Virus genome (UHGV): UHGV-0097682 | Length of the DNA: 16,064 bases | Origin: a virus | Strand: one strand, 5' to 3' | In this document: one piece after another, positions 15,921 to 16,064 of the stretch | Layout: each line of letters begins with the position of its first letter | How positions within the stretch are numbered: the stretch's first letter is position 1 | Notes under the pieces: generated by a model | What the model was told of the DNA's origin: nothing | Databases searched by the model: none | What the model saw: the letters and a program-made list of their open reading frames with translations, nothing else | Translations under genes and position numbers: made by a program

Positions 15921-16013
15921 ATGTCCAGAAAAACAGAATTTAAAGGCACCGCAGCTTCTCGCCGTAGAGCTCGTCGCGCAAATCTGCAAAGTCAGGAGGC
16001 GATCAGCTCGTAA
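15921..16013 (+). CDS. N: N-like antiterminator N-terminal fragment (arginine-rich motif); apparently truncated or frameshifted
   Basis: GGAGG at 15912-15916 precedes the ATG at 15921. Translation MSRKTEFKGTAASRRRARRANLQSQEAISS contains an ARM very like lambda N (QTRRRERRAEKQAQ). It stops at 16011-16013 after 30 codons, whereas N proteins are about 100 aa. Confidence 0.4.
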   Translation: MSRKTEFKGTAASRRRARRANLQSQEAISS

Positions 16014-16064
16014 GCGTGCAGCAAGAACCGTATTGACGGGGATGTGTTATTCAGTCGGCAGTGC

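Follow-up and report, generated by a model that had tools for sequence, protein, structure and literature searches.

Interruption of the N antiterminator gene by an IS66-family element at the end of a lambda-like prophage contig

Organization of the prophage arm

The window, by which we mean the whole stretch of DNA analyzed here (16,064 nucleotides, UHGV virus genome UHGV-0097682), is an entire metaSPAdes contig (NODE_1863 of ENA assembly ERZ824673, coverage 3.1x, cov_3.125055) and represents one arm of a lambda-like prophage (Table 1). An earlier note, made from the nucleotide sequence alone, had taken the terminase, lysis and Q modules to be intact. This holds for Nu1, Rz, the endolysin, the holin and Q, all of which are complete, but not for the large terminase subunit, which is cut. 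The two-gene module between cI and the pRM terminator, where lambda has rexAB, encodes proteins of 185 aa and 250 aa (DUF1828) that belong to PHROGs 2017 and 1960, both of unknown function. PDC-M24, a candidate defence system of PADLOC, is matched weakly by the module, with E=5e-4 for its component A and E=5e-10 for its component B. This module may be a prophage-encoded exclusion system.

Table 1. Features of the window, in order of position.
Feature	Position	Strand	Remarks
Terminase large subunit	2-1402	-	467 residues, cut by the left contig end
Nu1	1404-1949	-	Complete ORF
Rha-like regulator; Rz, endolysin, holin S		-	Rz, endolysin and holin are complete ORFs
Q	6419-7042	-	Complete ORF
NinH, RusA, YbcO, NinF, NinX, NinB		-	
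DnaB-type helicase	10220-11671	-	
O-like initiator	11646-12545	-	
cII		-	
nutR, downstream of cro	13099-13144	-	boxA CGCTCTTTGTAACAA; spacer hairpin GGAC-ATTC-GTCC; boxB hairpin TCGCT-GAAA-AGCGA
cro	13155-13370	-	
cI	13440-14138	+	HTH and S24 peptidase domains
Two-gene module in the rex position	14178-15484	+	
pRM terminator	15488-15516	+	
pL region	15656-15731	+	Three putative operators and leftward promoter, mapped base by base from the VT2-Sakai annotation (AP000422.1)
nutL	15777-15822	+	boxA GCTCTTTAAACAA, 15778-15790; spacer hairpin, 15792-15804; boxB hairpin, 15809-15822
N antiterminator, 5' piece	15921-16009	+	Codons 1-29 and two bases of codon 30; holds the arginine-rich motif
Left copy of the 8-bp target-site duplication, ATCAGCTC	16002-16009	+	Recurs past the far IS end in IMT5155 and in Logan contig DRR218659_283
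IS66-family end, tnpC-proximal inverted repeat GTAAGCGTGCAGCAAGAACCGTATTGACGG...	16010-16064		55 nt; the window and the contig stop here

The genes cI and cro, the operators and the nut sites are intact in the window, and the leftward promoter pL reads TTGATC-17-TACTAT (15703-15731). Both nut sites had been described as intact in the earlier note, and our mapping agrees with this: the 41 mapped bases of nutL (15777-15817) are 100% identical to the VT2-Sakai feature 'putative N-utilization leftward', and a second site with the same architecture follows cro. The latter was named nutR from its position and architecture, not from an annotated reference. At nutL, the spacer hairpin (GTCGA-CTC-TCGAC) and the boxB hairpin (TGGCT-GAAA-AGCCA) are both present in the minimum-free-energy fold. 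The boxB hairpins of the two sites close around GAAA, and their stems differ by a compensatory G-C to C-G change. The spacer hairpins (15792-15804 on the + strand and 13117-13128 on the - strand) are unlike in sequence, with dyad symmetry being kept in both. We take this boxA-hairpin-boxB build to resemble the nut site of the H-19B/933W type. A 60-aa ORF (15761-15943, + strand) that overlaps nutL and the start of N corresponds to the RefSeq hypothetical protein WP_000438342.1 and to PHROG 3137. Because the nut RNA site lies within this ORF, it is probably a spurious call that has spread through the databases.

The N reading frame and the end of its homology

The Shine-Dalgarno sequence GGAGG can be read directly at 15911-15915 (+ strand) and is followed after 5 nt by the start codon of N (ATG, 15921-15923). 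The ORF that begins there (15921-16013, + strand) translates to MSRKTEFKGTAASRRRARRANLQSQEAISS and ends after 30 codons at a TAA (16011-16013); the strong SD and the early stop pointed out in the earlier note are thus both present. The 30-aa product agrees at every residue with positions 1-30 of the 90-aa N proteins encoded by PhiR57_1 and VT2-Sakai, and it matches Pfam PF25694 (N_peptide) with 36.2 bits (cut-off 27.9, E=9e-9) as well as PHROG 271, 'anti-termination protein N-like' (E=2e-7). The Pfam match extends over profile positions 5-35 of 100, which bears out the view that N is truncated just past its arginine-rich motif; an intact relative scores 112.5 bits and covers the whole profile. 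The genomic setting is that of N as well, the ORF being the first gene of the pL operon, with nutL (boxA and boxB) before it and the second nut site after cro. Judged from these sequence matches, the 30-aa product is a genuine fragment of N and no chance ORF, and its partial coverage of PF25694 marks the ORF as a gene fragment and not as a functional member of the family. A scan of NCBIfam gave no match for either the intact or the truncated N, and an exact look-up of the upstream-extended 54-aa ORF (15849-16013) gave no record.

An alignment of N genes had been expected in the earlier note to locate an indel. No indel was found against PhiR57_1, VT2-Sakai and the phage records; instead, homology stops at 16009. 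A megablast search with 15500-16064 as the query against 50,697 phage records matched 160 records, including Stx-converting phages, ev207 and PhiR57_1, and in all of the 30 matches listed of these 160 the alignment breaks off at base 510 of the query, corresponding to position 16009 of the window. Since the window follows the intact N alleles without a gap up to this position and then continues abruptly in unrelated sequence, there is no indel before the stop. The intact N of PhiR57_1, from which that of VT2-Sakai differs by one residue, continues past residue 30 in the same frame (frame 0) with DKLHRPTPSRVV...YRKSKQLTAR. Around the site the intact allele reads ...GCGATCAGCTCCGACAAG..., with the sequence past the site continuing as ...AGCTCCGACAAG and ...ATCAGCTCCGACAAG; the empty site reads ...GAGGCGATCAGCTCCGACAAGC..., and the target 8-mer is present once. 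The part of N that lies right of the site is present in 484 complete E. coli genomes, and 481 of these have no interruption at this point. An exact search for the 30-aa product also gave several short contigs without an IS junction, in which an intact N allele simply runs into the contig end at codon 30.

An IS66-family element in codon 30 of N

From 16010 onwards the window reads GTAAGCGTGCAGCAAGAACCGT..., opening with the inverted-repeat start GTAAGCG, and the junction between N and the IS is ...ATCAGCTC/GTAAGCGTGCAG. The N frame stops at once because the IS end begins with GTAAGCG: bases 2-4 of the IS (TAA) form the stop codon at 16011-16013, and codon 30 is composed of the N bases TC and the IS base G (...AGC TC/G TAA). 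When the IS end was used as a query of 60 nt (16005-16064, the final 55 nt plus 5 flanking bases), it matched 2108 of the 5426 complete E. coli genomes, on chromosomes as well as plasmids, with a median of 2 copies per genome and with most matching records at ≥99% identity. The features annotated at these matches are 'IS66-like element ISEc22 family transposase' or 'tnpC: IS66 family transposase'. The pattern GTAAGCGT-N10-CCGTATTGA is common to 118 other IS66-family ends.

The window ends 55 nt inside the element, and the gene set was read in the E. coli genome IMT5155, which has the same junction. There the full element measures 2442 bp, is labeled by PGAP as belonging to the ISEc22 family, and carries tnpC, tnpB and tnpA on the strand opposite to N. 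It has imperfect inverted repeats (GTAAGCGT.../...ACGCTTAC) and is flanked by the direct repeat ATCAGCTC, the two junctions reading ...GAGGCG ATCAGCTC (GTAAGCGTGCAGC ... GCTGTACGCTTAC) ATCAGCTC CGACAAGC... with the element in parentheses. Its ORFs match the Pfam families DDE_Tnp_IS66 (E=2e-106), TnpB_IS66 (E=1e-38) and HTH_Tnp_1, the DDE_Tnp_IS66 match being accompanied by LZ_Tnp_IS66, zf-IS66 and DDE_Tnp_IS66_C, so that a tnpA-tnpB-tnpC set is present. The 8-bp sequence ATCAGCTC flanks the element in IMT5155 and in the Logan contig described below and is single in the intact allele, while the window holds the left copy. We take GTAAGCG ends, an 8-bp duplication and a tnpABC gene set to be the defining features of the IS66 family.

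It is almost certain that an IS66-family insertion into codon 30 of N, in a lambda-like prophage of the Stx-phage type, explains the truncation. An element of about 2.44 kb with the genes tnpA-tnpB-tnpC transposed into this codon and duplicated 8 bp of the target, ATCAGCTC, as other IS66 elements do. The product left is a 30-residue peptide that has the arginine-rich boxB-binding motif and is devoid of the other 60 residues. The junction and the identity of the IS are observed in the window itself, this sample contributing 55 nt of the element; for the remainder of the IS, the far copy of the duplication and the 3' portion of N that was displaced, the evidence comes from other genomes that share the junction. 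Compared with the N of Stx phages (VT2-Sakai, 933W and H-19B type), residues 1-30 are identical to those of VT2-Sakai, and pL and the operators are near-identical. In contrast to these phages, the window can make only the first third of N, and the IS parts the other 60 residues from the promoter and the start codon.

The same junction in avian E. coli genomes

The segment 15701-16064 was matched with 100% identity across the junction in three complete genomes, namely IMT5155 (APEC), DE17 (duck) and VTB96815v (chicken). In all three, PGAP/RefSeq annotates an 'antitermination protein N, missing C-terminus', which is followed first by the opposite-strand genes tnpC, tnpB and tnpA and next by an 'antitermination protein N, missing N-terminus'. 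N of these genomes is thus already entered in RefSeq as two pseudogene pieces. The second piece consists of residues 28-90, and the missing 60 residues are located about 2.45 kb downstream, past the IS and in the original frame. Together the two pieces rebuild the 90-aa N exactly, with an overlap of residues 28-30 (ISS), which are encoded twice because of the 8-bp duplication. Beyond the second piece follow sieB, ral, cIII, kil, gam, bet, exo, xis and int, next to icd.

The prophage of these genomes, which is integrated at icd and carries iss, has the junction, the N allele, the IS end and the immunity region in common with the window. From 12782 to the junction there are only three differences, at 13438, at 14064 (a 3-bp in-frame indel in cI) and at 15700. 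At 14064, three bases (ATG) are missing in frame from the window when it is compared with the cI genes of IMT5155, DE17 and PhiR57_1, a deletion that could be either real or an error given the 3x coverage. The avian prophages differ from the window to the left of 12674, where the window has a DnaB-type replication module and other nin, Q, lysis and packaging genes, and this places a mosaic breakpoint at 12674-12782, in or near cII. Because of this difference, the structure downstream of the window is extrapolated across a mosaic boundary. Among the complete E. coli genomes, none contained the whole window, and none combined the left side of the window with the N::IS junction. Either recombination brought the N::IS allele into another prophage or a new insertion took place at the site. 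An exact-junction scan of the GTDB species representatives gave 0 matches, and an 18-nt junction pattern gave 3 matches in IMG/VR and 83 in JGI metagenomes, none of them in the context of N, which marks them as chance matches.

The contig end and other explanations of the truncation

The contig ends exactly 55 nt inside the IS repeat, and another contig that has this junction, from the draft genome GCA_002475575.1, breaks off after 77 nt of the IS. We take 55 and 77 to be standard SPAdes k values, and with this general knowledge the contig end is the usual assembler break at a boundary between unique and repeated sequence: the assembler could not cross the IS because it is a multi-copy repeat and the reads were short. 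The low coverage of this metagenomic contig (cov 3.1) and its end in a repeat would also be compatible with an assembly chimera, in which an intact N was wrongly joined to an unrelated IS end. Such a chimeric join is very unlikely, however, because finished genomes show the same junction with the proper 8-bp duplication at the far end of the element. The identical junction occurs in three finished and several draft genomes from independent projects; moreover, a join requires reads that span the unique/IS boundary, and an end located one k-mer inside a repeat is the normal sign of a true boundary of this kind. A gene that stops within about one k-mer of a contig end and is followed by GTAAGCG or another IS terminus should be read as a repeat boundary, and the correct label in the present case is 'N antiterminator, interrupted by an IS66-family element; contig ends in the repeat'.

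The earlier note had attributed the truncation to a frameshift that inactivated N or to a sequencing or assembly indel, with the protein continuing in an Arg-rich +1 frame. Translation confirms that this frame (...KVRRRSARKRAARTVLTGMCYSVGS) is open and Arg-rich up to base 16064. This is a coincidence of the sequences that were joined: 'KVRRRSAR' comes from N DNA translated in the wrong frame, and 'KRAART...' comes from the inverted repeat of the IS. Furthermore, in the complete genomes, as read in IMT5155, the +1 frame stops 22 codons beyond the position where the window ends and contains no N-like sequence, and it closes after 50 codons in the intact allele. The real C-terminus of N (DKLHRPTPSRVV...KQLTAR) is instead encoded in frame 0 of the intact allele. 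When all frames of the window, the intact allele and an IS-bearing complete genome were translated, N sequence was encoded by no downstream frame, and the alignment with the intact alleles has neither a gap up to 16009 nor any similarity beyond it, the IS66-family end starting at 16010. A 1-bp frameshift or sequencing indel in N is therefore scarcely credible. A point nonsense mutation (the intact N has a D after ...EAISS) was likewise rejected, everything past 16009 being unrelated to N. The insertion of the IS66-family element also settles two further suggestions of the earlier note. Its proposal of a defective prophage is borne out as far as the disabled N is concerned, with an IS insertion and not a frameshift as the cause; and a full-length N in a single frame, which it thought might appear downstream once read errors were corrected, was not found, residues 28-90 being located past the IS in the avian genomes. 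Finally, the idea that in this phage family the true N is naturally preceded by an ORF for a short ARM peptide can be dismissed almost entirely, as nothing favors it except the ORF itself, which equals residues 1-30 of the 90-aa N, whereas the relatives make one 90-aa protein that covers the whole N_peptide profile and the site is uninterrupted in all but three of the 484 complete genomes that contain the right-hand N segment.

A second IS66-family element at the same nucleotide

The Logan contig DRR218659_283, found in two samples, carries at 3264-5789 another IS66-family element, which is inserted at the position corresponding to 16009/16010 of the window. This element measures 2526 bp, has about 65% nucleotide identity over tnpC to the 2442-bp element, and diverges from it right after the common GTAAGCGT. 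The two insertions agree in orientation, in the ATCAGCTC duplication and in the N allele, and the flanks of the 2526-bp element are 100% identical to the intact PhiR57_1. Because two different IS66-family elements occupy the same nucleotide, the N site was struck at least twice independently. The coincidence is less striking than it seems, since the second element was found by an exact look-up of the 30-aa product and such a search returns only insertions at this very site.

The flanks of 118 distinct IS66-family insertions in GTDB genomes show a weak preference, roughly G-W-W-T-A-W-N-S with C being rare at -3, and the target site in N does not fit this weak consensus. We consider it rather improbable that ATCAGCTC in N is a hot spot for IS66 elements, or that an ARM-only 30-aa peptide has been selected, for example as a boxB decoy; in the decoy version, the peptide would act against superinfecting phages of the same nut type. 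A 10-nt flank that seemed to be common to a second locus (L015) was discarded because BLAST had extended the alignment too far (CCGATTACTG versus GCGATCAGCTC). Our search of the literature on IS66 target specificity and ISEc22 returned nothing relevant, and to our knowledge the target choice of IS66 elements is poorly characterized. That one nucleotide has received two different IS66 elements offers a small clue to this choice.

Expected consequences for the prophage

The N gene of the window prophage is inactivated by the insertion. In lambda N, the part beyond the arginine-rich motif contacts NusA and RNA polymerase. The 30-aa peptide would retain the boxB-binding motif and would lose this contacting part, so that processive antitermination from pL and pR should fail. 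By analogy with lambda, transcription from these promoters would halt at the first terminators when full-length N is lacking, and Q and the late genes would be inadequately expressed. In addition, the 2.4-kb IS, being antisense and untranslated, would be polar on cIII, kil, gam, red, xis and int. Because the repressor, the operators and the nut sites remain, immunity would persist and N could be complemented in trans, the lytic programme running only with a compatible N from a co-resident phage. On the basis of lambda biology, the prophage is thus probably not inducible without a helper N. In amber mutants of lambda N, both delayed-early and late transcription are expected to fail. The window prophage resembles these mutants in that full-length N is lost and the nut sites are kept, but it differs from them in that N was lost through a 2.4-kb insertion, from which polarity on the pL operon is to be expected in addition.

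Insertion of an IS is an ordinary and known route by which prophages become disabled. In prophage Sp4 of E. coli O157 Sakai, ISEc8, which is likewise a member of the IS66 family that inactivates an essential gene of a lambdoid prophage, disrupts nu1 (Asadulghani et al. 2009, PMC2669165). The gene struck in Sp4 serves packaging, whereas the gene struck in the window serves early antitermination. The window thus provides a further case of IS-mediated prophage decay or domestication, in which immunity (cI, the operators and the module in the rex position) is kept and the lytic switch is probably lost. Its significance beyond the correct annotation is small. In the avian-strain prophages L003 and L004 (1230-3845), a second IS66-family element, of the ISCro1 family, lies beside the small terminase gene, and these prophages also carry the serum-survival gene iss and an ompC-like porin gene; the second IS66 element, iss and the porin gene are signs of a decaying prophage with virulence cargo.
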